Shown here: in pieces, positions 5,669 to 41,674 of the stretch
How the letters are laid out: every line of letters begins with the position of its first letter
Numbering within the stretch: position 1 is the first letter of the stretch
Source of the DNA: Rhodobacterales bacterium
GTDB lineage: Bacteria; Pseudomonadota; Alphaproteobacteria; Rhodobacterales; CAZPXZ01
NCBI GenBank assembly: GCA_965221505.1
Contig: CBDCSI010000001.1
Location: 172,504-236,503, forward strand
DNA: 64,000 nucleotides
Direction of reading: 5' to 3'
Made by a program: the position numbers and the translations under genes
The notes under the pieces: generated by a model
Seen by the model: the letters and a program-made list of their open reading frames with translations, nothing else
Database searches by the model: none
Told to the model about the DNA's origin: nothing

Positions 5669-6768
5669 CAGCGGACCTCAATGTCCTGCTGAACGGCGAT
5701 CTTGATCTGGTCGCCTTCCAGACCGACTGCTTGCGGTAGCCTCCTGTCCAGCTTCTGGATTGTCACCTGATCATCGAATTCGGGGCGGGACCGCAACAAC
5801 GAACCAAGCGCCCGAACGCAATCGTAGCTGTGCGTGGTAGCGAAGACCTGAACGTTCAGATTTTCTGCCAGCTGCACTACCATCGACCACATACCTCTCA
5901 TGACCGTCCAGTGAAGGCCGGTGTCAATCTCGTCAACGAGCAAGACGCCGTCGGCAGATCCGACGAAAGCGAGCCGAAGGGCAAGGAGTCGCCGGATTCC
6001 GTCGCCGTAGGATCTAATTGGATACCGGCGCCCGCCGTTGCGCTTCCCCAGCACTATGCGGTTCTCCAATACACGAGTCGGCAAGAAATGAATGGAGTCG
6101 AGGTCAGGCTCCAGCAACTGCATGTCCTGGACGACCTCCGCTTCCCTTCCTGCCATCACGACCATGCTCCACATTTTGTCCATGGCGGCAGGATCGAAGG
6201 ATTCCAGCGTCAGGAAATGAACCGGCGTTCCAACCTGCCCGCGCCGGAACGCTCCGGGGACTAAATCATGCATCAACGCGCCGTCTTCCAGAACCGGAAA
6301 CACAGCGCTCTTCTCCGGTACGCCCGAATCGATGCTCAGTCCGGACGCCGGCACGACCACCTCTTCGGAGCCAGATAGCGTTCTCCGCTGCCGTCTCGCG
6401 AGTCTCAAATACCAGTCGTCCAATTCTTCGTCGATCTCTTCCGACGAGAGCATCGTAGCCGAGAGGGAGCGTTTGCAGTCGTCGGTCGACAGATCGAAAC
6501 TCGCTCCCGGCTCACAGGAATGGCCATGAAAAACGTGCGAAACGGTCACGAGGCGCTCCTGAGCGAAACGAGCGCTCATATCTCCCCGTCGCCTAAGGGA
6601 TTCGTACAGGACACGGAGGTTCCCTTCCGTTACCAGGAGCTCGACGGCTTCCAGGACCGAGGTCTTGCCGCTGTCGTTCTTGCCGACCAGGAGGTTCACC
6701 CTGGCCAAGTCAGCGAGACGGTACGAATCGAACCCCCGAAATCCGCGAAGGCCCAAGGTGCCTATCAT
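5668..6768 (-). CDS. ABC/AAA15-AAA21-type ATPase (OLD/AriA/AbiLi-like ATP-binding protein)
   Basis: Start chosen at ATG 6768 (MIGTLGLRGFRGF...), with GAGGA 7 nt upstream. Walker A is LLVGKNDSGKTS, Walker B is VLLVDEIDTGLH, and the H-loop is FATTHS. The 48 codons upstream in the ORF lack a coding pattern. Confidence 0.85.
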   Translation of the reverse strand: MIGTLGLRGFRGFDSYRLADLARVNLLVGKNDSGKTSVLEAVELLVTEGNLRVLYESLRRRGDMSARFAQERLVTVSHVFHGHSCEPGASFDLSTDDCKRSLSATMLSSEEIDEELDDWYLRLARRQRRTLSGSEEVVVPASGLSIDSGVPEKSAVFPVLEDGALMHDLVPGAFRRGQVGTPVHFLTLESFDPAAMDKMWSMVVMAGREAEVVQDMQLLEPDLDSIHFLPTRVLENRIVLGKRNGGRRYPIRSYGDGIRRLLALRLAFVGSADGVLLVDEIDTGLHWTVMRGMWSMVVQLAENLNVQVFATTHSYDCVRALGSLLRSRPEFDDQVTIQKLDRRLPQAVGLEGDQIKIAVQQDIEVR

Positions 6769-7162
6769 CGTTCGTCCTCGATTGTCGCATTCCGAATCTG
6801 CACCATCATAGTGCGGGTCGGGCTCGGCACTCGCCGGACCAGGACTAAGGAGACCGGTGGCATTACTGCGATACGGACGCGTCTTCGCGTTTCGAACAGC
6901 AACGTCGGACAATCCTCGACACGGTTGCCGGCGCCGATGGTTTCCGTCCGCATTCCGTCGCGGGAACCGAATGCCCTTCCGCCGGACGACAGCATGATCG
7001 TCCTTGCTGCGAACGCGGGCCGCACGACGCAGTTCCCGGTACTGCTCTCAACCGGGACGAGACCGCCAGCTTCCCGAACCAAAGCAGTGACGGACTGTAT
7101 CGGTCAGCGGAAATTGGCCGAGGAGGCCGGGCCGCAGCCGCACGACAGCCGCCGAACGCCGG

Positions 7163-8641
7163 CTACCGGACGAGAAACAGGGAGATCTCCGGAAACGCGA
7201 CCAAGAGGGCGAGAACCGCCAGCTGCAGGCAGATGAACGGCCCGAAGGACCGGTAGATGGTCACCAGGTCGATCTCCGGCGGCGTGACGCTCTTCAGGTA
7301 GAAGGCCGCCGACCCGAAGGGCGGCGTCAGGAACGCCACCTGCATGTTGACGCTGAACAGGATCCCGAACCAGATCGGATCGTAGCCGAGCTTGATCACG
7401 ATCGGCATGAACACCGGCATGGTCAGGAGCACGATGCCGATCCAGTCCATGAACATGCCGAGCGCGAGGAAGATCAGCATCATGATCAGGATGACGCCGA
7501 TGGGAGCGATATCGAGCGCGAAGATCAGGTCGGCGACGTATTTGTTGCCGCCGGAGAGGCTGTAGGCGCCGGCCAGGACCGTGGCGCCGAATGTCACCCA
7601 CAGGATCGTGCCCACCGAGCGGAAGGTCTGCTCCAGGCTCTCGAACAGCATGACGATGCCGAGTTCCCGGCGGATGGCGATGAGGACGAAGGTCGCCACC
7701 ACGCCCATCGCGGCCGCCTCCGTGATGCCGGTGACGCCGCCGTAGATCGATCCCAGCACGAGATCGACCACGATCAGGGGCGGCAGCAGCCCCCTGGCGA
7801 TCGGATAGCGGTCTTCCTTGCGAAGCAGGTAGACCAGGACCAGACCGATGGCCGCGCTCGAGAAGATGAAGAACGCGACCTGCTCCGTCGTGCCGACGCC
7901 GAACGCCCGCGCGATCAGGACAGCGACGCCGCCGACGGCGACCGGGGTCAGGTTGTAGGCGAGCTCCATCGGCGTCTCGAGCGACGCCCGCCGCGTGTCG
8001 CTGCCGTCGGTGCCGACCGTAATGGGAGCGAGGGACGGGTTCAGGCGGGTGCGGACGACGATATAGGCGATATAGGTGGCCGCGAGCATCAGGCCCGGGA
8101 CGAAGGCCGCGGTGAAGAGGGCGGTGATCGAAGTCTCGGTGATCAGCCCGAAAATGATCAGCACGACCGACGGAGGGATCATGGTGCCGAGCGATCCGCC
8201 GGCGCAGATGGTTCCGATCGCGAGGTGCTTGTCGTAGCCGAGCCGCAGCATCTGCGGCAGCGCGACGAGTCCGAGCAGGACGATTTCGCCGCCGATGATG
8301 CCCGACATCGCCGCCATGATGACCGCCATGACCGTGGTCACGATGGCGACCCCGCCCCGCATGCGACCGAGCGCGACGTTCAGGGCGTCGTACATGTCCT
8401 TGGCGATTCCGCTTCGCTCCAGGAGCGACGCCATCACGATGAAGAGCGGCACGGCGATGATCGCGTAGGTGATGGCGAGGTCGTACACCCGCTGCATCAC
8501 CAGGCCGAGGCCGGGCATCCCGAAGTTGAAGTAGATCACGATCGCGCCGAGCAGCCCGGTGGCGAAGCCGAGCGGCACCCCGGCGATCAAGAGGACGAAG
8601 ATCCCGATCAGCAGGAGAAGCGATAGCGTGCCGATGTCCAT
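7163..8641 (-). CDS. dctM: TRAP transporter large permease subunit
   Basis: Start at ATG 8641 (MDIGTLSLLLLIGIF...) overlaps the dctQ stop by 1 nt (ATGA). The 492-aa protein is polytopic. The upstream 178 codons of ORF 7163..9175 are Arg/Gly-rich and lie out of frame over dctQ. Confidence 0.9.
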   Translation of the reverse strand: MDIGTLSLLLLIGIFVLLIAGVPLGFATGLLGAIVIYFNFGMPGLGLVMQRVYDLAITYAIIAVPLFIVMASLLERSGIAKDMYDALNVALGRMRGGVAIVTTVMAVIMAAMSGIIGGEIVLLGLVALPQMLRLGYDKHLAIGTICAGGSLGTMIPPSVVLIIFGLITETSITALFTAAFVPGLMLAATYIAYIVVRTRLNPSLAPITVGTDGSDTRRASLETPMELAYNLTPVAVGGVAVLIARAFGVGTTEQVAFFIFSSAAIGLVLVYLLRKEDRYPIARGLLPPLIVVDLVLGSIYGGVTGITEAAAMGVVATFVLIAIRRELGIVMLFESLEQTFRSVGTILWVTFGATVLAGAYSLSGGNKYVADLIFALDIAPIGVILIMMLIFLALGMFMDWIGIVLLTMPVFMPIVIKLGYDPIWFGILFSVNMQVAFLTPPFGSAAFYLKSVTPPEIDLVTIYRSFGPFICLQLAVLALLVAFPEISLFLVR

Positions 8642-21300: not shown

Positions 21301-22913
21301 GAGAAGTTCTGCCGGAAGAAGTGGCTGAGGGGGCGGTGCAGGTCCGAGAGCACCGCCAGCGGCGCGTCGTCGCCCATGGAACCCACGGCCTCCTTGCCGT
21401 CCTCCGCCATGGGGTGAAGAACCGTCTCCAGCTCCTCGATCGTGTAGCGCGCGGCAATCTGCATGCGGCGGAGTTCGCCGGCCTCGAGACGGGGCGACTC
21501 GACGGCGCCGCGAACCCGGGGCGAGAGATCCACGATATGGGCGGTCCATTCGCGGAAGGGCCGGGAGGACGCCAGGGTCTCCTTGATCTCCCGGTCGCGG
21601 CGGACGACCCCGTCCCGCAGGTCCACGCCGAAGATCTGTCCCGGACCGAGACGGCCGTTCTCGACGACCTCCGCGTCCGGCACTGCGACCATGCCCGTTT
21701 CGGAGCCTGCGATGGCGAGGCCGCCGGCGGTGATCTGGTAGCGCATGGGCCGGAGCCCGTTCCGGTCCGTTCCGGTGACGACCCAGCGGCCGTCCGTCGC
21801 GACGATCGCCGCGGGACCGTCCCAGGGCTCCATGACGGCGTTGGCGTAACTGTACAGGTTGCGCCACTCGTCGGGCATGGCGGTGGCCTTCTTGGACCAG
21901 GCTTCGGGCAGGAGCAGGGTCTTGGCCATCGGCGCGTCGCGGCCGGCCCGGACGAGGAGCTCGAAGACCGCGTCGAGCGCGCCGGAGTCGGACGCGCCGG
22001 GGGGGATGACCGGCTTCACGTCGTCGGCGCGGGCGCCGAATCCCTCGTGCGCCAGGCGGATCTCGTGGGACTGCATCCAGTTGGCGTTGCCCCTGACCGT
22101 GTTGATCTCGCCGTTGTGGGCGAGCGCCCGGAACGGCTGCGCGAGCCACCATTGCGGAAAGGTGTTGGTCGAGTAGCGCTGGTGGAAGAGGGCGTAGCGC
22201 GACTCGAACCGCTCGTCCTGAAGGTCGGGATAGAACGCCGCGACCTGCTCGGCCAGCATCATTCCCTTGTAGACCACCGAACGGCAGGAGAGCGAGCAGA
22301 CGTAGAACTCGGCGACCCGCGCGGCGGCTGCGCGCGATTCCATCCGGCGCCGGGCGAGATAGAGCTGCCGCTCGAACCGTTCCGGCTCGATTCCGACGGG
22401 CCCGGCGACCATGATCTGCGCGATCTCCGGCCGCGTGGCGTCGGCCTTGGCGCCGAGCACGCCGACCTCGACGGGAACGTGGCGCCAGCCGTAGAGCGAA
22501 TAGCCGAGGGCGAGCATTTCCGACTCGACGATCGACTTGCAGGCTTCCTGCGCCGCGAAGTCGGATCTCGGCAGGAAAATCTGTCCGACCGCCAGCCGCC
22601 CGTCCTGGGGAACGTGTCCGGTCTTGCGGATCTCGTCGTCGAAGAACCCGGCCGGAATGTCGAGATGGAGGCCGGCGCCGTCGCCGGTGCGTCCGTCGGC
22701 GTCGACCGCGCCCCGGTGCCAGACGTTGCAGAGCGCCTCGATTCCCTTGTCGACCACTTCCCGCCGCGGCGTGCCGTCGATCGCGGCGACGAAGCCGACG
22801 CCGCAGGCGTCGCGGTCCAGGATCGGCGGGTGTCCCGGCGCGGAGGACAGGCGGCGACGGAGCGCGCGCTCGCGGGAGGCCCAGTCGGGCGGAAGGCTCT
22901 TGCTCGAACTCAT
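18360..22913 (-). CDS. gltB: glutamate synthase large subunit
   Basis: ATG 22913 overlaps the gltD stop (ATGA). The N-terminal amidotransferase Cys lies in DACGVGF, and FMN/Fe-S and GXGXG domains are recognisable across 1517 aa. Confidence 0.97.
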   Translation of the reverse strand: MSSSKSLPPDWASRERALRRRLSSAPGHPPILDRDACGVGFVAAIDGTPRREVVDKGIEALCNVWHRGAVDADGRTGDGAGLHLDIPAGFFDDEIRKTGHVPQDGRLAVGQIFLPRSDFAAQEACKSIVESEMLALGYSLYGWRHVPVEVGVLGAKADATRPEIAQIMVAGPVGIEPERFERQLYLARRRMESRAAAARVAEFYVCSLSCRSVVYKGMMLAEQVAAFYPDLQDERFESRYALFHQRYSTNTFPQWWLAQPFRALAHNGEINTVRGNANWMQSHEIRLAHEGFGARADDVKPVIPPGASDSGALDAVFELLVRAGRDAPMAKTLLLPEAWSKKATAMPDEWRNLYSYANAVMEPWDGPAAIVATDGRWVVTGTDRNGLRPMRYQITAGGLAIAGSETGMVAVPDAEVVENGRLGPGQIFGVDLRDGVVRRDREIKETLASSRPFREWTAHIVDLSPRVRGAVESPRLEAGELRRMQIAARYTIEELETVLHPMAEDGKEAVGSMGDDAPLAVLSDLHRPLSHFFRQNFSQVTNPPIDPLREHRVMSLNTRFGNLKNVLDEGQSQTENLLLDSPVVLNEQFAEMRRAFGDEERELDCLFPADGRADALRAALHRIRTDAEDAVRAGVAHLVLTDERIDADRAAIPAILATSAVHGWLVRQGLRTFCSIGVRSAECVDPHHFAVLIGCGATTVNAWLAQESVADRHRRGLFGGLSLSACLDRYREAAEQGLLKIMSKMGISVVSSYRGGYNFEAVGLSRALVSEYFPGVASRISGIGLAGIERSALASHARAFRTDAVALPIGGFYKARARGETHSWDARGMHLMQSACASGSMELWRRFAGRLQDMPPTHLRDLLGFRTAGDPVPLSEVESVASIRRRFVTPGMSLGALSPEAHETLNVAMNRIGAKSDSGEGGEDLERTLNSEDGENRAARIKQIASGRFGVTAAYLNACDEIEIKVAQGAKPGEGGQLPGFKVTPTIARLRHSTPGVSLISPPPHHDIYSIEDLAQLIFDLKQINPVARVTVKLVASTGVGTIAAGVAKAKADIILISGHNGGTGAAAQTSIKHAGLPWEMGLSEAHQILTLNDLRERVILRTDGSVRTARDVAMAAMMGAEEYGVGTAALVAMGCIMVRQCHSNTCPVGICTQNPKLRDKFAGTPERVVNFFTLLAGEVRELLASLGVRSVDEIVGRTDLLEQVSRGAPHLDDLDLSPLLTRIEKADASSLRRDRHAHRVEVPDTLDAEILRDAEPFLRDGRKMDLSYTVRNTQRAVGTRVSSHIVRRFGRDRPLSPGHLTIRLEGSAGQSLAAFGAAGLRVDVRGDANDYVGKGLSGGEIVLRPPLDSILVPHENTIVGNTVLYGATGGRLFANGQAGERFAVRNSGAEAVVEGCGANGCEYMTGGTVALLGRVGDNFGAGMTGGMAFVLDDEGDFLERLNGDTVIAVRVESAYWESVLRNLVEAHAEATGSPLARDLLQAWRRTLARIWQVCPKERIERLERPLSDADAASATA

Positions 22914-24346
22914 GCTGCAGTCCTCAATTCCGTAGCGGCGCCGAGTCGCCGGTGAATCGCCTCCGCCGCCTCGCGTCCGTCGCGGATGGCCCAGACCACC
23001 AGCGACGCCCCGCGGACGACGTCGCCGGCCGCGTAGACGCCCTCCATGCTGGTCTTTCCCGTGCGGACGTCGGCGCGAACCGTGCCCCAGCCGGTCAGCG
23101 CCGGCGCGTGTTCGCCCCACAGTGCCGCGAAGTCTTCCGGATCGAAGCCCAGCGCCTTGACCGCAAGGCCGCATTCGACGTCGAACAGGCCGCCTTCGAC
23201 CGGTTCGGGGGCGCGGCGCCCGGTCCGGTCGGGCGGGCCGAGCTGCATCTGCTGGGCGCGAATCGCGGCGACCGAATCGTCCCCGGCGAACGCCTTCGGC
23301 GCCGATAGCCACTCGAAGCGGACGCCCTCTTCCTCCGCGTGGAACACTTCCCGGCGGGATCCGGGCATGTTGCTGCGGTCCCGCCGGTAGAGGCAGCGGA
23401 CCGAGGCGGCGCCTTGCCGTACGGCGGTCCGGACGCAGTCCATGGCGGTATCGCCGCCGCCGATCACGGCGACGTGCCGGTCGCGGGCGTCCAGGACGCC
23501 GCTGTCGAAGGCCGGCACCCGGTCGCCGAGGCCCTTCCGGTTCGAGGCGGTGAGAAAGTCGATCGCCTGCACGATCCCGCCGAGTCCGGAGCCGGGTCCG
23601 CCCAGGTCGCGAGCCTTGTATACGCCGGTAGCGAGGAGAACCGCGGAGTGCCGGGCACGGATCTCGCCGAGGCCGATATCCGTGCCCACGTTACAATTCA
23701 TCCGGAAGTCGACGCCGCCCTCCGCCAGCAGTTCGACGCGGCGCAGCACCGCTTCCTTGTCCAGCTTGAAATTCGGGATTCCGTAAATCAGGAGCCCGCC
23801 GGCGCGGTCGTGGCGGTCGTAGACGACGACCCGGTAGCCCCGGCGCCGGAGCGCGTCGGCCGCCGCCAGTCCGGCCGGGCCGGCGCCGACGATTCCGACC
23901 GATTCGAGCCGCTCCAGCGGCGGGGCGGGGGGGCGCACCCAGCCCTTTTCCCATGCCGTTTCGGTGATGTAGCGCTCGATGGCGCCGATGGTGACGGTTC
24001 CGTGGCCGGACTGTTCGATGACGCAATTGCCTTCGCACAGCCGGTCCTGCGGGCAGATTCGCCCGCAGATCTCTGGGAAGGTGTTCGTCGCCTGCGAGAG
24101 TTCGTAGGCTTCCTCGAGGCGGTTCTCGGCCGTCAGCTTCAGCCAGTCCGGGATGTTGTTGTGGAGCGGACAATGGGTCTGGCAGGCCGGAACGCCGCAT
24201 TGCGAGCAGCGAGCGGCCTGCTCGGCCGCGCGCTCGGCCGCATACTCTCGGTAGATTTCGCCGAAATCCTCGCGACGCGCCTCGGCCGCCCGCTTCTGCG
24301 GCATGGCGCCGGGGGTGTCGACGAAGGCGAGCATTCTTGCGGGCAT
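22910..24346 (-). CDS. gltD: glutamate synthase small subunit (NADPH)
   Basis: ATG 24346 has GGAGA upstream. Cys clusters (CSQCGVPACQTHCP, CGRICP...CEGNC) and two dinucleotide folds (GAGPAGLAAA, VIGGGDTAMD) are present. Confidence 0.95.
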   Translation of the reverse strand: MPARMLAFVDTPGAMPQKRAAEARREDFGEIYREYAAERAAEQAARCSQCGVPACQTHCPLHNNIPDWLKLTAENRLEEAYELSQATNTFPEICGRICPQDRLCEGNCVIEQSGHGTVTIGAIERYITETAWEKGWVRPPAPPLERLESVGIVGAGPAGLAAADALRRRGYRVVVYDRHDRAGGLLIYGIPNFKLDKEAVLRRVELLAEGGVDFRMNCNVGTDIGLGEIRARHSAVLLATGVYKARDLGGPGSGLGGIVQAIDFLTASNRKGLGDRVPAFDSGVLDARDRHVAVIGGGDTAMDCVRTAVRQGAASVRCLYRRDRSNMPGSRREVFHAEEEGVRFEWLSAPKAFAGDDSVAAIRAQQMQLGPPDRTGRRAPEPVEGGLFDVECGLAVKALGFDPEDFAALWGEHAPALTGWGTVRADVRTGKTSMEGVYAAGDVVRGASLVVWAIRDGREAAEAIHRRLGAATELRTAA

Positions 24347-24434
24347 CGAGCTGTCTCCAGGCGGATGGAGGCGAAAGGACCGGGGTCTCGGCACCGAAGG
24401 AACTGGGGGCGGCCATGTTAACCGATCTAGGCTA

Positions 24435-24462
24435 CCCATACAAGACAGTACTATTGCCGTAA
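24435..24462 (-). promoter_or_regulatory. candidate gltDB promoter (TTACGG-16 nt-TATGGG on minus strand)
   Basis: It lies in the only AT-rich patch upstream of gltD. The hexamers were read by eye and there is no experimental support. Confidence 0.25.
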
Positions 24463-24638
24463 AATTCGGATGTCTGCCCGCCGGTCCGAATTGGGTTTCT
24501 GAGTTTCGAAAAAAGTATGGCAGTACCTATGTCATAGTAGCCCGGTCCAGCCTGGTGGCGTTGGCAGTGCGACGACCGACGAGACCGGTCGTATGGAATG
24601 CGTCCGCGGATTCGCCGGCTTGCGGGTACGAGCGGGGG

Positions 24639-25745
24639 CGATTCGGACCGCCGGGTCCATGCGCCGAACTGCACGGGACGGGGCGGGTATTGCAGGCCGG
24701 CGGCATCGCTCTGCACAGTCGGAGGGCGATTCCGACGACACTGAGACAGATTCCGGCAACATTGAGACAGCGTTCGTCACCTTCAGCGATATTCGCTTGC
24801 GTTTGCGTCGAACGCTCCGGTCTACCGGGGCCTGGGACCGGGACCGGGGCCGGTTTCGCAGGGAGTCCTCGCAGACCGACGGCCGGCAGCGCGAGCGACG
24901 GCGATTCGGACTGCCGGGTTCGGGCGCCGAATTGCACGGGACGGGGCGGGTTTTGCAGGCCGGCGGCATCGTTCTGCACGGTCGGAGGGCGATTCCGACG
25001 GCACTGAGACAGATTCCGGCAACATTGAGACAGCGTTCGTCACCTTCAGCGATATGCGCTTGCGTCTGCGTCGAACGCTGCCGTCTACCGGGACCTGGGA
25101 CCGGGACTGGGGCAGGGTTCCCAGGGAGTTATCGTTGACCGACGGTCGGAAGCGAGAGCGGCGGCGATTCGGACTGCCGGGTTCGGGCGCCGAATTGCAC
25201 GGGACGGGGCGGGATTTGCAGGCCGGCGGCATCGTTCTGCACGGTCGGAGGGCGATTCCGACGGCACTGAGACAGATTCCGGCAACATTGAGACAGCGTT
25301 CGTCACCTTCAGCGATATGCGCTTGCGTTTACGTCGAACGCTCCGGTCTACCGGGGCCTGGGACCGGGACCGGGGCCGGTTTCGCAGGGAGTCCTCGCAG
25401 ACCGACGGCCGGCAGCGCGAGCGGCGGCGATTCGGACTGCCGGGTTCGGGCGCCGAATTGCACGGGACGGGGCGGGATTTGCAGGCCGGCGGCATCGCTC
25501 TGCACGGTCGGAGGGCGATTCCGACGACACTGAGACAGATTCCGGCAATATTGAGACAGCGTTCGTCACCTTCAGCGATATTCGCTTGCGTTTGCGTCGA
25601 ACGCTCCGGTCTACCGGGGACCGGGACCGGGACCGGGGCAGGGTTCGCAGGGAGTTGTCGTTGATCGACGGCCGGCAGCGCGAGCGGCAGCGATTCGTAC
25701 TGCCGGGTTCAGGCGCCGAATTGCACGGGACGGGGTACGGGTTCG
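24639..25745. repeat. tandem repeat, 263-bp unit, four full copies plus a truncated fifth
   Basis: The anchor cgattcgga/cgattcgta recurs at 24639, 24902, 25165, 25428 and 25691, exactly 263 bp apart. Copies are near-identical over the first ~200 nt, and the last ~60 nt occur in two alternating variants. Confidence 0.95.
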
Positions 25746-26395
25746 GATTCCGCCCGTGACCGGCAGCAGCGTGTTTGGGGGACCCGATCGGGGAGGTGGG
25801 GGGATTCTTCGACGATCTGCACGACCGCAGCCGAGCGCCGTCCGGCGATCGTTGACTACGGACGGTCGGCCCGACCCCAGTTGCGCAGGCGGGCAGCCCG
25901 TCGCAATTCCGCCGCGTTCGGCCGACCGCGCGGACCGGGAGAGGAGTGTCCGCTGCGTGTCGCCTCGGGGCAGCGAATTTCAGGCAATTCAATCGCGGTC
26001 CGTCAGGTTGGCAATTTCATCTTTTGCTTCGCCCGCCACCCCTGCCGACGGGAGAAAAGGGCGCATTTCACTTCAGCGTATGCGCCGACAGGGACGTTCC
26101 TCGGTTCCAGGTCACTTCGTTGACCGACGACCAAGGAGTCCGCGCTTGATCGTGCGGATGTCAGTGCGCACACTTGTCCAGTTTCGGCGTGTGCCGCTAC
26201 CGTGCCCGGCAGATTGAGACCTGATCGGCCGCGACCAAGCGAGCGTCAACACGAAAGGTTCGACGGCCGCATCGACCGCCGTTTCGGTTCGCGGACGAAT
26301 GGCTCGTCCATGGACATGTCGAGCCTCGGGTCACAGTCGTCCGCATGTGCGATTCACGCGCCCAAGACAGAGGACCTCTTCAGCGGGGAATTGCA

Positions 26396-27838
26396 ATGTC
26401 TGCAGAACGGGTCGCGAGGGTCGTCGCGGCAGGCGAATCGGAAACGCTCGAGTTCAAGAGCACCACGGGGACGCGTCGAGAGGCGACGCAGACCGTCTGC
26501 GCGATGCTCAATCAGCGAGGCGGTCAGGTCCTGTTTGGTGTGACGCCGGACGGTCGAGTCGCGGGCCAGCAGGTGAGCGACCGCACCGTAGAGGAACTGA
26601 GCCGCGAGCTCATGAGAATCGATCCGCCCGCCTTCCCGACGATCGAACGGATTTCGGTGGGGGAAGGCCGCGAGGTCGTGGCCGTCACGGTAAGCCGTGG
26701 CCCGGCTGGCCCGTATATGTACCGGGGTAGCGCCTATCGGCGAGCGGGCAACACGACGGTCGTGACGCACGCCGAGGAGTATCGCAGGCTTCTCCTCGAA
26801 CGAATGCACAAGGAGCGACGCTGGGAGAACCAACCCGCCGAAGGATGGTCGATCGGCGACCTGGACGAGCGTCAGATTCGCCTCACTGCAGAGGAGGCCA
26901 TGCGCAGGGGCCGGCTCGAGGATCCCGGAACCCGCGATACCGGGGAGTTGCTGCGCGGCCTCGGCTTAATCCGGGATGGCGTCTTGTGGCGTGCGGCAGC
27001 GGTACTGTTCGGAAGCGAGGAGCGCCTGCGGTTCGACATGCCTCAGTGTCTGCTTCGCGTTGCCCGAATCAGGGGCGTTGCCCGGATGGAGTTTCTCGAT
27101 AACCGTCAGTTCCGCGGCAACGCGTTCGTTCTGCTCAGCGCCGCCGAACGCTTCCTGCGCGACAGTCTGCCGATCGCCGGGAGGTTCGAGTCGGGTCGAA
27201 TGGATCGGATCGACGAACCGCTCGTTCCGCCGTTGGCGACGCGCGAGGCGCTGGTCAATGCGCTGTGTCATCGAGACTACTCCGTTGGCGGCGGAAGTAT
27301 CGGTGTGGCGCTATACGACGACCGCCTGGAGGTCACTTCGACGGGTAACCTGCCGTTCGGGCTCACGCCCGAGAAGCTGTTCGTGCCGCACGAGTCACTT
27401 CCCTGGAACCCGATAATCGCCGAAACGTTCTATCGGCGCGGCGTCATCGAGCGTTGGGGTAGCGGTACGCTGAAGATGGCGGCGACAGCCGTCGAGGCCG
27501 GTCTGCCGCGACCGGAAATCGTAGATGACGAGACTTGCGTGACGGTGCGATTTCGTCATCGCGGGTTCTTCGCTACGCATACCGGAACGATGCGCTCGAC
27601 GGGTCGTGCCGTAATCGAGCGGCGGGACTTGAACGAGCAGCTGCGGGGGATCGTAGACTTGCTGGGCCGGGCCGGGCGCCCGCTCTCGCTCCGCGAGGTC
27701 CATCAGGGATTGCCCGCACGCCTGACAGTCCGCCAGGTTCAGCGGACGCTTGCCCGCTTGCGGGACCTTGGCCTCGTAGCTGCCTCCGGTCGTGGCGCGT
27801 CGGCCCGTTGGAGCCTGAGTCGAGCTACCGCGCTCTAA
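26396..27838 (+). CDS. AlbA_2 (Schlafen-type) domain / HATPase_c_4 / C-terminal wHTH protein (RecG-like putative DNA-binding ATPase)
   Basis: ATG 26396 has GGGGA 7 nt upstream. The ESETLEFK block marks the AlbA_2 N-domain. HRDYSVGGGSIGVALYDDRLEVTSTG...ERWGSGTLKM marks HATPase_c_4. The C-terminus has a wHTH-like LSLREVHQGL...LARLRDLGLV. Confidence 0.85.
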   Translation: MSAERVARVVAAGESETLEFKSTTGTRREATQTVCAMLNQRGGQVLFGVTPDGRVAGQQVSDRTVEELSRELMRIDPPAFPTIERISVGEGREVVAVTVSRGPAGPYMYRGSAYRRAGNTTVVTHAEEYRRLLLERMHKERRWENQPAEGWSIGDLDERQIRLTAEEAMRRGRLEDPGTRDTGELLRGLGLIRDGVLWRAAAVLFGSEERLRFDMPQCLLRVARIRGVARMEFLDNRQFRGNAFVLLSAAERFLRDSLPIAGRFESGRMDRIDEPLVPPLATREALVNALCHRDYSVGGGSIGVALYDDRLEVTSTGNLPFGLTPEKLFVPHESLPWNPIIAETFYRRGVIERWGSGTLKMAATAVEAGLPRPEIVDDETCVTVRFRHRGFFATHTGTMRSTGRAVIERRDLNEQLRGIVDLLGRAGRPLSLREVHQGLPARLTVRQVQRTLARLRDLGLVAASGRGASARWSLSRATAL

Positions 27839-28077
27839 AGGTAGACTGCCATTCGGAGGGGCGCCCCGGTTGGCGGAGTCTTGCGCGCAGGGATTCCTGC
27901 GGGTCGACAAAGTCCTCTGCGTCTGTCGATACGGGGACATGAGCGTCCGAGCAGGTGCCTGTAGCGCGGATTCGCCGCAGGACCGCTGGCGCCAGCGTTC
28001 CCCTCGCAGGTCCGGCGGCCGGGGGCGGTCGAGGTCCACGCATCCCGAGGGGTCACGCAGGCAAGGGAGGGAGCGTC

Positions 28078-28881
28078 ATTCCGGTAGAACAGCTCGTCTT
28101 CCTTGCGCTGGTGCAGGGTCTGACCGAATTCGCGCCGGTGAGTTCCTCGGCGCATCTCGCGCTGACGCCGCTCCTCTTCGGCGGGGCGGATCAGGGTCTC
28201 CTGGTCGACGTCGCGGCGCATGCAGGCACGCTTCTGGCGGTGATGGCGTATTTCCACGGCGAAATGCGGCGAATGGTTCGGGGAGGCGGACTGCTCGTCG
28301 TCGGACGGTGGCGGGAGCCGGACGCGCGCCTCGCCGCTCTTCTCCTGGTCGGCACGGTGCCGGCCGTTGCGGTCGGCTTCCTGATCTGGATATTGGGCCT
28401 CGCGGAAGCGTTTCGCAGCGTGGAGGCCATCGCTGCGTTCACCGTTCTCTTCGCGGTCGCTCTCTATTGGGCCGACCGGCGGGGCGGCCGGGACAGGCAA
28501 TTTGCGGATTTCCGACTTCGGGACGCGCTCTGGGTCGGCGTGGCGCAAGTGCTGGCGTTTCTGCCCGGCGCAAGCCGGGCCGGCGTCGCGATTACGGCGG
28601 GAAGGGCCCTCGGGTTCGATCGCGTCGCCGCGGCCCGCTTCGCCTTCCTGCTCGCCGTTCCGACGATCGGCGCGGCCGCGACGCTGGGCGCGATCGAGGT
28701 CGTTCGCTCGGGCGAGGAATGGTTGCAATGGTCGGCCGCCTGGGTCGCGATCCTGGCCTTCGCATCGGCGCTCTGCGCTCTCTGGGTTCTGATGCGTTTC
28801 CTGCGCCGCTGGAGCCTGATGCCGTTCGTGATTTACCGCATCGCGCTCGGGGCGGGACTGCTGCTCTACGCCTGGTCCTGA
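28078..28881 (+). CDS. uppP: undecaprenyl-diphosphate phosphatase
   Basis: Motifs GLTEFAPVSSSAHL and PGASRAGVAITAG. The stop is certain but the start is not. AAGGGAGG sits 7 nt before ATT 28078. Canonical alternatives are GTG 27955 (41 extra Arg-rich aa) or GTG 28111 (which truncates TM1). Confidence 0.85.
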   Translation: MPVEQLVFLALVQGLTEFAPVSSSAHLALTPLLFGGADQGLLVDVAAHAGTLLAVMAYFHGEMRRMVRGGGLLVVGRWREPDARLAALLLVGTVPAVAVGFLIWILGLAEAFRSVEAIAAFTVLFAVALYWADRRGGRDRQFADFRLRDALWVGVAQVLAFLPGASRAGVAITAGRALGFDRVAAARFAFLLAVPTIGAAATLGAIEVVRSGEEWLQWSAAWVAILAFASALCALWVLMRFLRRWSLMPFVIYRIALGAGLLLYAWS

Positions 28882-28912
28882 CCTCACCGGCCGGACCCCG
28901 TTCGCCACGCGA

Positions 28913-29854
28913 CTATCGGCGTCCGGTCAGCTTCCAGTACTGTCCGCCCGGGCGGAAGGGTTCGAGATAGGTCGCGATGACGCCTTCTACCGCGACCGGT
29001 GCGATGCCCAATTCCTCGAGTCCGCGCGCTCCAGGCGCGACGACCGAGTCGCGGGTCAGCAATTCCACCTGGTCCGGCGTGATCGGCGCGTTGGGCAACA
29101 GGGAGGCGACGGCGGCCATGGGGCGGGCAATTCCGAACGGAATCGGCAGCACGGCGCGCCGGCGGTGGATTACCCGAAGCATGATCTGCATGAGTTCTCG
29201 AAAGGTGAGAACCTGCGGCCCGCCGAGTTCGTAGACCCCCTTCGCGTCGGCCCGCGACACGGCCCGAAAGATCGCCTCGGCCACGTCGTCCACGTGAACG
29301 GGCTGAAATCGGGTTTCCGCGCCGACGAGGGGAATCGCCGGCGCGATCGCCGCCATGCGGGCGAATCGCACAAAGAACTGGTCCCCTTCCCCGAATACGA
29401 CGGAGGGTCGAAGTATCGCCGCCTCGGGAAACGATTCGGCGACCCGGCGTTCGCCCTCCGCCTTCGACCGCGCATAGCGCGAAGCCGATTCCGGGTCGGC
29501 GCCGATGGCGGAGACGTGAACCAGGCGCGAGACGCCGAGTTCGGCCGCCAGGCGAGCGATTTCGCCGGCTCCCTCGGCCTGGACGGCGGCGAATCGCTGC
29601 TTGCCGCGCTCCTGCAGGATGCCGACCAGGTTGACCACCGCATCCGCGCCCTCGATCGCGCGGCGCAGCGAAGGCGCGTGCCGCACGTTGCAGGCGACCG
29701 GTTCCACCTGCCCGACGTCTCCCCAGACCCGAACGTCTCCGGCAAGGTCGGGATTGCGGGTTCCGACCCGTATGCGCCATCCGCTGCGCACGAAGCGGGG
29801 CGCTACGCGACGGCCAATGAAGCCGTGGCCTCCGATCAGAGCGAGGATCGGCAT
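28913..29854 (-). CDS. complex I NDUFA9-like / NAD(P)H-binding SDR family protein
   Basis: ATG 29854 (MPILALIGGHGFIGRRV...), an atypical-SDR Rossmann fold. The 313 aa match the alphaproteobacterial NDUFA9-like pattern (YARSKAEGE, RPSVVFG). Confidence 0.85.
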   Translation of the reverse strand: MPILALIGGHGFIGRRVAPRFVRSGWRIRVGTRNPDLAGDVRVWGDVGQVEPVACNVRHAPSLRRAIEGADAVVNLVGILQERGKQRFAAVQAEGAGEIARLAAELGVSRLVHVSAIGADPESASRYARSKAEGERRVAESFPEAAILRPSVVFGEGDQFFVRFARMAAIAPAIPLVGAETRFQPVHVDDVAEAIFRAVSRADAKGVYELGGPQVLTFRELMQIMLRVIHRRRAVLPIPFGIARPMAAVASLLPNAPITPDQVELLTRDSVVAPGARGLEELGIAPVAVEGVIATYLEPFRPGGQYWKLTGRR

Positions 29855-31307
29855 TCGACTTGTTCCGGAATTGCTGGGTCCGCACCTGCGGGGCTTGCCG
29901 CATCCTACCGCAGGGCAACGCTTCCGCAAGCGGTTTCGGGAGGGTTCCGACGTGCGGCGGCGCAACGGGAAGAGGAATCGTTCCAGGAATTGCGGGTCCG
30001 CGCCGCTTCGAACTCGAGGCATGAATTCGGCCGCCCCGGGGGCCAGTCGCCGTGCGGAACCGTTCTCTCCCGCGCCTACACTTTTTGGTCTGTCGCCATG
30101 GATCGCCGCAAGGGACTCCAGCGCGATCAGGCACACCACCCGTCTGGCGACGCAGCGACCGGACACTCGCATGCGCTGGCGCAGGGTCCGCTCCCGCGCG
30201 TCCGATGCCGGCGCACCCGATACTCCTGACCAGGTTGACGGCGTCTCGGAACCGGCGCGCTTTAGAGATTCTGCGAAGCGCCCAGTTCCCGAATCTCTCG
30301 TCCTGCCGACCGGAACGGCGCGGCCAGCCCCATGTCGCTGCAACCGCACGGCGGGCACGTCCCAAGGCGGGAAGCTCGATCCGAGACCGTGCGCCGAGAG
30401 CGGCGGTCGCCGGGGACGAGACCGTCGACACTGGCCTCGGTCTGGGCGTCCCGACAGAGGAGGCTCGGCGCGAGGATCGCCGGATTGACGGCGGGGAGTC
30501 GACGGCCTTCGAATTGCCGGGCCCGAATGCGTGACTCGGCCGACCGTTTCTCGAGTCGCACGGAATGCCATGCGAGGGCAATGATCGTCAACGAGATCGC
30601 TAATCCGGCGGACACGGGATCGCAGCCCGTCCCGGATTCCGGTTGCGGCAGAATCCCGCCGCCGCACCGATTCGAGGCCGGGTTCGCAATTTGGGGGCGT
30701 CGAGACACGGACGGCCCGGCCGCAGGACCCTTTGCGTCCGTGCGTCATGTGCGACGACGCGCGCCCGGGTCTCGGGAAGCGCTCAAGGGGCATCCGTCTG
30801 CGCCGTCCGGATCCGTGCCGCGACTCCTACCGAAACCTCTCGCTCGGAGGAGTTCCGGAGATTCTCTCGGCCTGGACTCGGCAAGGCCTGGCCGGAGATC
30901 CAGCCTCCCTTCCGTGAAGGAGTCGACGCAGGGGACCGTTGGCGGTAGCGTTGCCCGCCGGCCCCCGAATCGTGCGACCCGCAGCCGGAGAAATCATGAG
31001 CCGAATCGCTGCCCCTGTCGTTTCTCGCATGATTCGCACGGTGGCTGGGCATGCACGCGCGTCCCGTGCGTCGCGACCAGCGAGCCCCCTCGGGGCATCG
31101 GTCGCGCGCACGACCTGAAGCGTTCGCTCAGGCAGCCGCACGACAGGCGCCCCGGGGGGTGCGCTCGTAGCGATCCCGAATACTCGTTGCGGCACCGTCG
31201 TTCCTGACGGCCGCCGAGTCTTCGGCGGATCGAACGCTCAACTACATTCCTTCGCCGACTTGCGCGCCTGCCGCGATCGGCTAGAATGCCACTGAAGACG
31301 GTAACCG

Positions 31308-31772
31308 ATGGCAAACCAAAATACCGATACCCCCCGCCCGACAAGCCTGCTGGGCCTCGGCAGAGACACGATCGCAATTCTCGTCGGATTGGCCAGCATC
31401 GTAGCGATGATGTACTTGGATATCTCTCGTTCCAGAGTGCTGGAGGCCAACCTGCGCGAGGACATTGCCCTTCTCCGCGCCGATATGAGAGAGGACACGA
31501 ACAGCCTTCGCGAAGACATTTCCAACCTGGAGAACAGCCTTCGCTCTGATATGACGGACATGGAAGAACGCCTTCGCTCTGAGATGACGGACATGGAAGA
31601 ACGCCTCCGCTCTGAGATTACGGCAAACACGAACGATCTCCGCGCGGAGATGGCGGAGAGCAGACGAATCTTTCTGGACCGGCTCGTCGAGCAGGAAGGG
31701 CGAATCGCGCGTGTCGAGACGTTGCACGAAGAACCGAATCCGCACTCGCACGGCGACGTTGTCCCCCGCTGA
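31308..31772 (+). CDS. hypothetical membrane-anchored coiled-coil protein with 11-residue repeats
   Basis: One N-terminal TM segment (IAILVGLASIVAMMYL) is followed by repeated LRxDM/LRxEI units. GC is lower than the surroundings and the codon pattern looks coding. I recognise no family. Confidence 0.7.
   Translation: MANQNTDTPRPTSLLGLGRDTIAILVGLASIVAMMYLDISRSRVLEANLREDIALLRADMREDTNSLREDISNLENSLRSDMTDMEERLRSEMTDMEERLRSEITANTNDLRAEMAESRRIFLDRLVEQEGRIARVETLHEEPNPHSHGDVVPR
31539..31604 (+). repeat. 33-bp in-frame tandem duplication inside the coiled-coil gene
   Basis: cttcgctctgaKatgacggacatggaagaacgc occurs twice back to back (31539-31571 and 31572-31604) with one mismatch. It encodes LRSDMTDMEER / LRSEMTDMEER. 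Confidence 0.9.
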
Positions 31773-31921
31773 CCCGGCGGGTGTCCCTGCGCCTCGGGCC
31801 TCCGCCCGCAACCCGGGAATAGGTCCGAGTGCGCAGGAGGGTCGCTTGCCGTGCGGACGGATGCCGGTTGCGCCCGGCTGATCCCCGGTTTCGGAAGGAC
31901 GCAAGTCCTGCGCGGCGATTC

Positions 31922-31970: not shown

Positions 31971-32057
31971 GCCCAGGTGGCGGAATTGGTAGACGCGCTA
32001 GCTTCAGGTGCTAGTGACCGCAAGGTCGTGGAAGTTCGAGTCTTCTCCTGGGCACCA
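31971..32057 (+). tRNA. tRNA-Leu (anticodon CAG), class II with long variable arm, CCA encoded
   Basis: The sequence folds by hand: acceptor GCCCAGG/CCTGGGC; anticodon stem CTAGC/GCTAG with loop TTCAGGT (CAG); variable arm TGACCGCAAGGTCGT; T-arm GGAAG-TTCGAGT-CTTCT; 3' ACCA. Confidence 0.95.
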
Positions 32058-41005: not shown

Positions 41006-41674
41006 ATGGAGATGATCGAGGTAGACAGCGCCGAGTGCGCCGAGTGGCGCAAGCGAAACGGAATCCCCGACGGTGCCGCATTGGTGTTTCAGGCGTTCGA
41101 TGTCCACGAGAAGGACGGCTCGCCCGAGGGGAAGCCTACCGGGAGGGTTTTCTTGTACGCCGTGGGAGGCATCCACCCGGACGGCGGGGTTGTCCTGGTC
41201 GGCTCGAACCGAAAGGAACCGCGTCCGGCGATGCGGGTGACGGACGGATGGGGCGACCTGGAGTCGACGGAGAAGCCGCCGGTAGACGAGAGGGAGTGGC
41301 GCATGCGGAACGGTATCCGCGAAGACGCCATGCTGGTATTCCAGGCGCTCGATCGCCAAGAAAAACACGGATCTCTGTTTGGGAATGCTGCCGGCAGAAT
41401 CGCTTTGGTCGCCGTGGCAGCCATTTACCTGGACGGCGGGGTCGTCCTGTTCGGCAACAATCCGAAGGAACCGCGCCCGGTGCTGCGGGTGACGGACGGG
41501 TGGGGCGACTTCGATCCGACGGAGGAGTCGGAGGCGGACGAGACGGAAGCGGAAGTAGCCTCACCGGAGAAGCCGGACGCGCCAAAGGAGCGCCGCCTCG
41601 TGCACGTATTCGGTCCGCTCGTCGAGGAGGCTGAGGGCGTGCCGCCGCAGGGGGATGCGCCGGAGAAACCGTGA
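41006..41674 (+). CDS. hypothetical protein with two tandem ~84-aa repeats and an acidic tail
   Basis: ATG 41006 with GGAGA upstream. The repeat period is 252 nt (aaggaacc at 41213 and 41465). Each repeat ends in KEPRPxxRVTDGWGD. I recognise no family. Confidence 0.7.
   Translation: MEMIEVDSAECAEWRKRNGIPDGAALVFQAFDVHEKDGSPEGKPTGRVFLYAVGGIHPDGGVVLVGSNRKEPRPAMRVTDGWGDLESTEKPPVDEREWRMRNGIREDAMLVFQALDRQEKHGSLFGNAAGRIALVAVAAIYLDGGVVLFGNNPKEPRPVLRVTDGWGDFDPTEESEADETEAEVASPEKPDAPKERRLVHVFGPLVEEAEGVPPQGDAPEKP

Follow-up and report, generated by a model that had tools for sequence, protein, structure and literature searches.

What is a tandem array of 263-bp units doing in the DNA between gltD, a gene of glutamate synthase, and a gene for a Schlafen-like (AlbA_2) protein? 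A sequence-only reading of this locus had put forward three possible roles, namely an array of small structured RNAs, a protein-binding array and a recombination-prone satellite. We analyzed the array in its setting, a 64-kb stretch of DNA referred to throughout as the window. The structure of the units, the searches for relatives and the comparison of the locus with those of related bacteria, taken together, fit the last of the three roles best.

Structure of the repeat array

Tandem Repeats Finder detected a single array with a period of 263, 4.2 copies, 92% matches, 0% indels and a score of 1883, so that position, period and approximate copy number are those given by the sequence-only reading (Table 1). 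The four copies were found exactly 263 bp apart in a repeat search of the window, and a 44-mer taken from the unit occurred four times in the window against an expectation of 0.00 from 100 dinucleotide shuffles. The array is a real repeat, confirmed by each of these measures. The anchor cgattcgga, which had been described as recurring every 263 bp, does so in four copies, whereas the fifth, at 25691, reads cgattcgta. The last copy, which had been said to break off after about 50 nt, stops after 55 nt.

Table 1. Features of the array and of its surroundings (positions in the window)
Feature	Position	Strand	Basis or remark
gltD (glutamate synthase small subunit)	22910..24346	-	Pfam Fer4_20 + Pyr_redox_2; P0001 100% identical over 478 aa
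Native gltD upstream region	24347..24604	.	Lower GC; two palindromic boxes conserved in relatives
Palindromic boxes	24438-24456, 24519-24537		Similar GACAGTA..TACTG boxes in intergenic L001, L002, L008 and L009
13-nt exact direct repeat CGCGGATTCGCCG, left copy	24605..24617	+	11 nt ahead of array
Tandem array	24629..25735	.	4 full units + 55-nt fifth copy
Full 263-bp units u1-u4	24629-24891, 24892-25154, 25155-25417, 25418-25680
21-bp direct sub-repeat x2, GATTCCGACGGCACTGAGACA / GATTCCGGCAACATTGAGACA	25254..25296	+	Period-21 rows of Tandem Repeats Finder
Sub-repeat pair in every unit	24728-24770, 24991-25033, 25254-25296, 25517-25559
Canonical G-quadruplex motif GGGGCCTGGGACCGGGACCGGGG (GGGG, GGG, GGG and GGGG separated by CCT, ACC and ACC)	25353..25375	+	Regex scan
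G-quadruplex motif, one in each unit	24827-24849, 25090-25112, 25353-25375, 25616-25638	+
Partial fifth copy, 55 nt	25681-25735		All likeness to unit ends after 55 nt
Spacer, 660 bp, non-repetitive, non-coding	25736..26395	.	Between array and AlbA_2 gene
AlbA_2 (Schlafen-like) + HATPase_c_4 gene, 480 aa	26396..27838	+	Pfam; P0121 100% identical over 480 aa
bacA/uppP (undecaprenyl-diphosphate phosphatase)	27955..28881	+	74% identity to L002 BacA at 28048-28881 (tblastn)
13-nt direct repeat, right copy	27965..27977	+	126 nt past AlbA_2 stop codon, upstream of bacA

Alignment of the four full units gave pairwise identities of 90.1-94.7%. The units vary at 33 sites, every one of them a substitution, and the length of the unit has been strictly kept. 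Within the first 61 nt, changes private to one unit occur mostly in u1, the unit at the edge of the array. The GC skew of the array is positive, at 0.11-0.16.

The last 63 nt of the unit exist in two alternating versions, as had been noted from the sequence. Units u1 and u3 are identical in this tail (0 differences) and u2 and u4 carry the other version (9 differences), the two versions differing at about 7-11 of the 63 positions. The alternation does not extend into the body of the unit, where u1 pairs with u4 and u2 with u3 at positions 81, 110 and 165, giving an ABBA pattern in the body as against an ABAB pattern in the tail. An ancestral higher-order unit of 526 bp, proposed earlier on the strength of the alternation, is therefore consistent with the last 63 nt only; the body groups differently, and the 526-bp register, at 93.9% identity, is hardly an improvement on the 263-bp register, at 92.5%. 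Because tail and body group the units differently, duplication of one 526-bp dimer is insufficient to explain the array, and gene conversion or unequal exchange is needed.

Coding signal and relatives of the unit

GC content by codon phase is flat over 24340-26260, with differences between phases mostly of 0.2 or less; the phases differ by 0.25-0.5 in gltD, in bacA and in most of the AlbA_2 gene. The long stop-free segments found in six frames at 24435-26214, joined into one 2177-aa query, had 0 matches among 5.8 billion protein clusters. The self-match was also absent from this search, indicating that no gene has been called at 24435-26214 in the source genome. A 255-aa stop-free frame had a sole match among 1.84 billion representatives searched with phmmer, P0241, which is the translation of an unrelated tandem repeat of 53 aa. 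The alignment was split into 20 short stretches, and the match was rejected as spurious. The array is non-coding. Both of the long open reading frames that had been reported to run through it (24303..25007 and 25054..25533) are present, and the assertion that it cannot encode a repeat protein is upheld by the flat codon-phase signal, by the want of a true protein relative and by a unit length that is not a multiple of 3.

Relatives of the unit were sought at the level of DNA and RNA. Three exact 22-24-mers (ATTGAGACAGCGTTCGTCACCTTC, CACTGAGACAGATTCCGGCAAC and GGCGCCGAATTGCACGGGACGGGG) had 0 matches in GTDB representative genomes, JGI metagenomes and IMG/VR, and genome, metagenome and viral collections likewise had 0 matches to a degenerate 42-mer based on the sub-repeat pair. 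The 526-bp dimer matched nothing among plasmids (72,556) and phages with blastn in 'distant' mode. An nhmmer profile of the four units returned nothing at E<=10 from the masked window and ten related loci (L001-L010), and no further copy of the unit was found in the 64-kb window by 44-mer count, repeat search or nhmmer. Rfam 15 gave nothing at the gathering score over the whole window and nothing at E<=10 over 24300-26400. Derivation of the unit from flanking sequence was considered and rejected, the only matches being of 7-13 nt and at chance level. A literature search yielded no precedent for the 263-bp unit or for an array linked to AlbA_2.

The unit is apparently an orphan, one of a kind. 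The repeat had been called unusual for a bacterial intergenic region, and it is unusual in just this sense, being without a relative in the collections searched. The earlier view that the array is not a CRISPR, REP or IS element also agrees with our results, and the check that had been proposed, for identity with a known mobile element or RNA family, found no match in Rfam or among plasmids, phages and genomes.

The segment between gltD and bacA

The neighbors of the array had been correctly described as gltD on the - strand and an SLFN_AlbA_2 + HATPase_c_4 gene on the + strand, both recognized by Pfam. The start of the latter gene had been placed at 26345, in error for 26396. gltB lies behind gltD, and the best named GltD matches are from Rhodobacterales at about 70% identity. 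The bacA/uppP product reached at best 266.5 bits against NCBIfam undecaprenyl-diphosphate phosphatase models, under the curated cut-off of 284.

In six of six relatives' loci (GltD identity of 85%, 84% in two loci, 83%, and 79% in two loci) gltD faces bacA/uppP across about 190-490 bp, as against about 3.6 kb here. The closest relatives, those with a GltD 85% identical, are without the whole insertion. Nucleotide homology to the relatives ends at 24372 and resumes at 28087, within bacA. Judged by the two shared palindromic boxes, the native region upstream of gltD extends to about 24540; the relatives' intergenic sequences are too diverged for their alignment to fix the exact junction at the empty site. 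At a larger scale, the window is collinear with the related locus L002 from 13132 to 36254 with three exceptions, namely the gltD-bacA block, a second stretch of additional sequence at 29900-31918, and a gene for a peptidase S58 that L002 alone has.

The additional DNA is bracketed by a 13-nt exact direct repeat. Its two copies start 3360 bp apart, with the array, the 660-bp spacer and the AlbA_2 gene between them, and the window has no third match, even when 1 mismatch is allowed. The probability that at least 13 nt are common to both flanks by chance is about 0.0006 (5000 dinucleotide shuffles). No terminal inverted repeat around the array was reported by the repeat search. The presence of an extra block relative to the relatives, together with the bracketing repeat, indicates that array, spacer and AlbA_2 gene form a 3.36-kb insertion. 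Bracketing of this kind is the hallmark of integration at a shared short sequence, or of target duplication. That the array lies within a lineage-specific insertion bracketed in this way had been missed by the sequence-only reading.

The AlbA_2 gene itself differs from its surroundings, with a GC3 of 75% as against 85-91% in gltBD. Its closest homologues are 68-71% identical and scattered over many genomes, and DNA homology to them begins exactly at 26396 and stays within the open reading frame. In four of four homologue contexts (L004-L007), all of them defence islands, the AlbA_2 homologue shares 4 bp with the 3' end of a Type ISP restriction gene, or of a truncated remnant of such a gene, the two overlapping; a large tandem repeat is present in none of the four. 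At the present locus the usual Type ISP partner is absent, and the array and other non-coding DNA, 2 kb in all, occupy its position. A tblastn search with four Type ISP proteins revealed no credible trace of such a gene in 24347-26395, the only matches being scraps with E>=0.009 obtained with composition correction off. An origin of the unit from a lost Type ISP gene was rejected because the same search gave no credible remnant. PADLOC matched the AlbA_2 protein only weakly, to Ago-associated Schlafen-like parts. The AlbA_2 gene was probably acquired horizontally, as its composition and the distribution of its homologues suggest, and probably lost its usual upstream partner.

The 660-bp spacer shows neither codon periodicity nor similarity to the unit. 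Its open reading frames had no Pfam match, nhmmer detected nothing similar elsewhere in the window or in L001-L010, and both spacers used as nhmmer queries gave nothing at E<=1. The array occurs in none of the relatives' gltD loci and in none of the AlbA_2 homologue contexts, and so it is a conserved companion of neither gene.

Origin of the array and comparison with known systems

On balance, the array is likely to be a non-coding, minisatellite-like tandem repeat that is specific to its lineage and lies in acquired DNA, and it is most probably without a dedicated sequence-specific function. It is found at the left edge of a segment of about 3.36 kb inserted in the short gltD-bacA intergenic region. 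Its layout can be written as (R+M)x4+R, where R is the first 55 nt of the unit, and this is the product to be expected from recombination between short flanking direct repeats. A 263-bp segment may thus have been amplified by unequal recombination or replication slippage. The copies would then have diverged by 5-10%, and patchy gene conversion or unequal exchange would have reshuffled them to give the ABAB tail and the ABBA body. The likely effects of the insertion are that the gltD promoter lies about 2 kb away from the acquired gene and that the locus is variable in copy number, G-quadruplex-containing and prone to recombination. Four of the nine canonical G-quadruplex motifs of the 64-kb window fall in the array, all of them on the + strand (regex scan). 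A hairpin at the unit start was rejected as a structural driver; DNA fold z-scores there lay between -0.95 and +1.28, and neither u1 nor the fifth copy retains the hairpin.

Direct repeats of 263 bp are deletion-prone in bacteria. That four copies diverged by 5-10% are nevertheless present could hint at upkeep by selection, and this counts against the satellite reading. The uneven distribution of substitutions, the zero indels among the 33 variable sites and the period of about 25 helical turns were also counted against it.

These same features bear on a different reading, which we regard as unlikely, namely that the array is a cis-acting protein-binding array. Each unit would offer a pair of 21-bp repeats and a third GATTCSGRC motif, all in one orientation, for cooperative loading of a protein. 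The protein is possibly the adjacent AlbA_2/HATPase_c_4 product, acting through its C-terminal winged-helix region, and the putative effect would be that the protein regulates the acquired gene or insulates it from the divergent gltD promoter. The 21-bp sub-repeats, each equal to two helical turns, are indeed present in every unit, and they lie in its least variable core (positions 62-164), which has 4 variable sites as against 12.9 expected (P=0.0007, for a window chosen post hoc); the tail has 14 as against 7.9 expected. The array contains 12 GATTCSGRC motifs, three per unit and on the + strand only. Indels are absent, and at 10.5 bp per turn the 263-bp period is close to 25.0 helical turns. 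In addition, an inverted repeat akin to the unit motif, ATTCGGA..TCCGAAT, is found near the gltD promoter at 24464-24491, with a 15-nt inverted match to the unit start at 24477-24491. However, the copies of the motif all descend from one duplicated unit and hence are not independent, and patchy gene conversion produces uneven substitutions equally well. Furthermore, the four loci of close AlbA_2 homologues are without a comparable array or motif, and 660 bp separate the array from the gene start.

A broader proposal is that the array, as a repeated RNA or as a DNA docking site, is the functional partner of the AlbA_2/HATPase_c_4 gene in place of a Type ISP enzyme. Tandem repeat and protein would in that case make the 3.36-kb cassette a new two-part module, with a layout like that of a type III toxin-antitoxin locus and units seven times longer. 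We consider such a partnership improbable. The conserved core, the strict unit length and the helical phasing are compatible with it, and none of them gives it positive support.

In its RNA form the proposal makes the units repeated non-coding RNAs that partner the Schlafen-like protein, as a type III toxin-antitoxin-like or RNA-protein defence pair replacing the Type ISP gene. A gene of defence-island type does follow the array on the same side, and the + strand of the array is G-rich and nearly stop-free, a feature that is compositional only. Nevertheless, the earlier suggestion of an array of small structured RNAs found no support. One unit folds no better than its shuffles (z-scores of -1.05 for the + strand and +0.17 for the - strand). 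RNAalifold detected 0 compensatory changes among the 80 (+) and 73 (-) pairs predicted for the four units, a comparison with little power for four similar copies, and several of the pairs are disrupted in one unit or another. A scan of 24200-26500 gave neither a sigma-70-like promoter nor an intrinsic-terminator-like site, and so there is no terminator-like hairpin in the 660 bp of unrelated sequence that separate array and gene. There is no Rfam match, the AlbA_2 protein is not an endoribonuclease of the ToxN/AbiQ type, and the 263-nt units contrast with the short repeats of type III antitoxins (PMC5086642). On this evidence we judge an RNA partner to be very improbable. With four copies and no relatives, missing covariation is weak evidence against an RNA.

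An error of assembly, either the expansion of a single or double copy or the collapse of a longer array, would be compatible with the fact that the array is known from a single assembly and is carried by no second genome. Artefactual duplication yields identical copies, however, and the mosaic of differences at 33 positions, with most of the private changes of the first 61 nt in u1, therefore argues against an artefact. The 2.79-Mb source contig and the long-read-style names of related contigs, which come from ENA assemblies of the same type, also suggest that long reads spanned the 1.1-kb array, and we attach very little probability to an error of this kind. A coding remnant decayed beyond recognition, for example of the lost Type ISP gene or of a repeat protein, would suit both the Type ISP gene or fragment that is always immediately upstream of AlbA_2 homologues and the long stop-free stretches through the array, but it is hardly credible given the E>=0.009 scraps from tblastn, a codon-phase signal that appears nowhere in 24340-26260, a unit length indivisible by 3 and the lack of a protein relative in any frame.

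If the array is only a satellite, its value is modest, as a clean case of a tandem repeat of large size (263 bp) that has persisted in the chromosome of a bacterium. It marks a small acquired cassette in which the usual pairing of Type ISP and AlbA_2 genes has been broken, and it would be a good copy-number marker for an uncultured lineage. The candidate role of the 21-bp core as a binding platform or RNA for the Schlafen-like protein, whose family is poorly understood in bacteria as to its role, would, if true, carry greater weight.

Among known systems, the type III toxin-antitoxin loci resemble the present one in that a tandem array precedes a gene of defence-island type and shares its orientation. 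Type III antitoxins are 'short repetitive nucleotide sequences', and in toxIN, cptIN and tenpIN the short repeats are followed by a Rho-independent terminator and then by the gene for a ToxN-type endoribonuclease, all in one operon (PMC5086642). The locus described here differs in its 263-nt units, in its 0 terminator-like sites in 24200-26500, in the 660 bp between array and gene and in the family of the protein, which is SLFN_AlbA_2 + HATPase_c_4 and not of the ToxN/AbiQ/CptN/TenpN type.

Plasmid iteron and centromere-like arrays consist, like the array, of helically phased direct repeats with a short candidate binding motif in each; sopC of F, for instance, has 12 repeats of 43 bp. The array differs from them in its much longer period, in the absence of an adjacent rep or par gene and in the lack of any match among the 72,556 plasmids. 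It has gltD, the AlbA_2 gene and bacA as neighbors, and the region is collinear with the chromosomes of relatives. CRISPR arrays combine repeats with unique spacers, whereas here the whole 263-bp unit is repeated and the tail has two versions only. IS, MITE and REP elements are also a poor match, with no dispersed copies in the 64 kb, the 10 related loci or the public collections and no terminal inverted repeat. As for the Type ISP-coupled AlbA_2/HATPase_c_4 genes, the gene beside the array is a member of this group at 68-71% identity, but no trace remains of its partner, whose position is taken by 2 kb of non-coding DNA.

The array adds a new orphan to a known class of sequence, the bacterial large tandem repeats or minisatellites. 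Intergenic tandem repeats of this class serve in MLVA typing, for which one scheme is that of PMC4045669. Like a bacterial minisatellite or VNTR the array consists of imperfect head-to-tail copies (period 263, 4.2 copies, 92% matches, 0 indels) in intergenic DNA, it can be explained by slippage or unequal recombination, and it needs no product. It is neither a coding repeat nor a known RNA, having no codon periodicity, true homologue or Rfam match. In many VNTR families, MIRU for one, copies are spread over several loci, whereas the 263-bp unit is without a relative wherever searched. The units of typical bacterial VNTRs are about 10-100 bp long, and as 263 bp is several times that length, the array is better named a large tandem repeat or macro-minisatellite.

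A bracketed block next to the gltD upstream region

The 263-bp array, its spacer and the AlbA_2 gene together form a 3.36-kb block that is bracketed by two exact copies of a 13-nt sequence, CGCGGATTCGCCG, and is missing in all relatives compared. The direct repeat could have originated as an att-like core, as a target duplication or through microhomology-mediated integration. No integrase or transposase gene was found within the block.

Each unit of the array carries one canonical G-quadruplex motif with 3-nt loops. Only nine motifs of this type occur across the 64 kb of the window; four of them are in the array units, and none is on the minus strand.

Upstream of gltD lie two palindromic boxes with the pattern GACAGTA-N-TACTGTC. 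They are conserved in the gltD upstream regions of two relatives (L008 and L009), and the remaining intergenic DNA is unalignable. The boxes probably form an operator for a gltDB regulator.

Repeats and other features of the window, and AlbA_2 homologues at other loci
Feature	Position	Strand	Location
Palindromic boxes	24438-24456; 24519-24537		upstream of gltD
CGCGGATTCGCCG	24605-24617; 27965-27977		flanks of 3.36-kb block
G-quadruplex motifs	24827-24849; 25090-25112; 25353-25375; 25616-25638	+	array units
Tandem repeat, 33 bp x 3.8	31531-31657		ORF 31308-31772 (+)
Adjoining direct copies, 252 nt each, 73% identical	41042-41545
AlbA_2/HATPase_c_4 homologues	6001-7443 in each		L004, L005, L006, L007

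Variation elsewhere in the window

In the relatives' loci L002 (7577-8674) and L003, bacA and the epimerase gene are separated by a peptidase S58 gene, which is missing from the window (corresponding site, 28881-28925) and from L009 and L010, a distribution indicating that the bacA neighbourhood has seen several small gene gains and losses. The ORF that holds the 33-bp repeat is 154 aa long, and the repeat translates into 11-residue units. This ORF belongs to a stretch of ~1.4 kb, found in the window and missing from L002, that lies immediately upstream of a tRNA gene (31971-32054). The 252-nt copies are probably a duplicated protein domain, because their length is a multiple of 3.

The AlbA_2/HATPase_c_4 gene and its paired homologues

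The window gene (26396-27838) is an orphan, in contrast to its close homologues: in all four contexts examined, the 3' end of a gene for a Type ISP restriction enzyme overlaps the homologue by 4 bp. No mention of this conserved gene pair was found in the literature searched for it. The Type ISP gene is full length in L004 and L006 and truncated in L005 and L007; all four pairs sit in defence islands with AbiEii, RelE, Fic and integrases.
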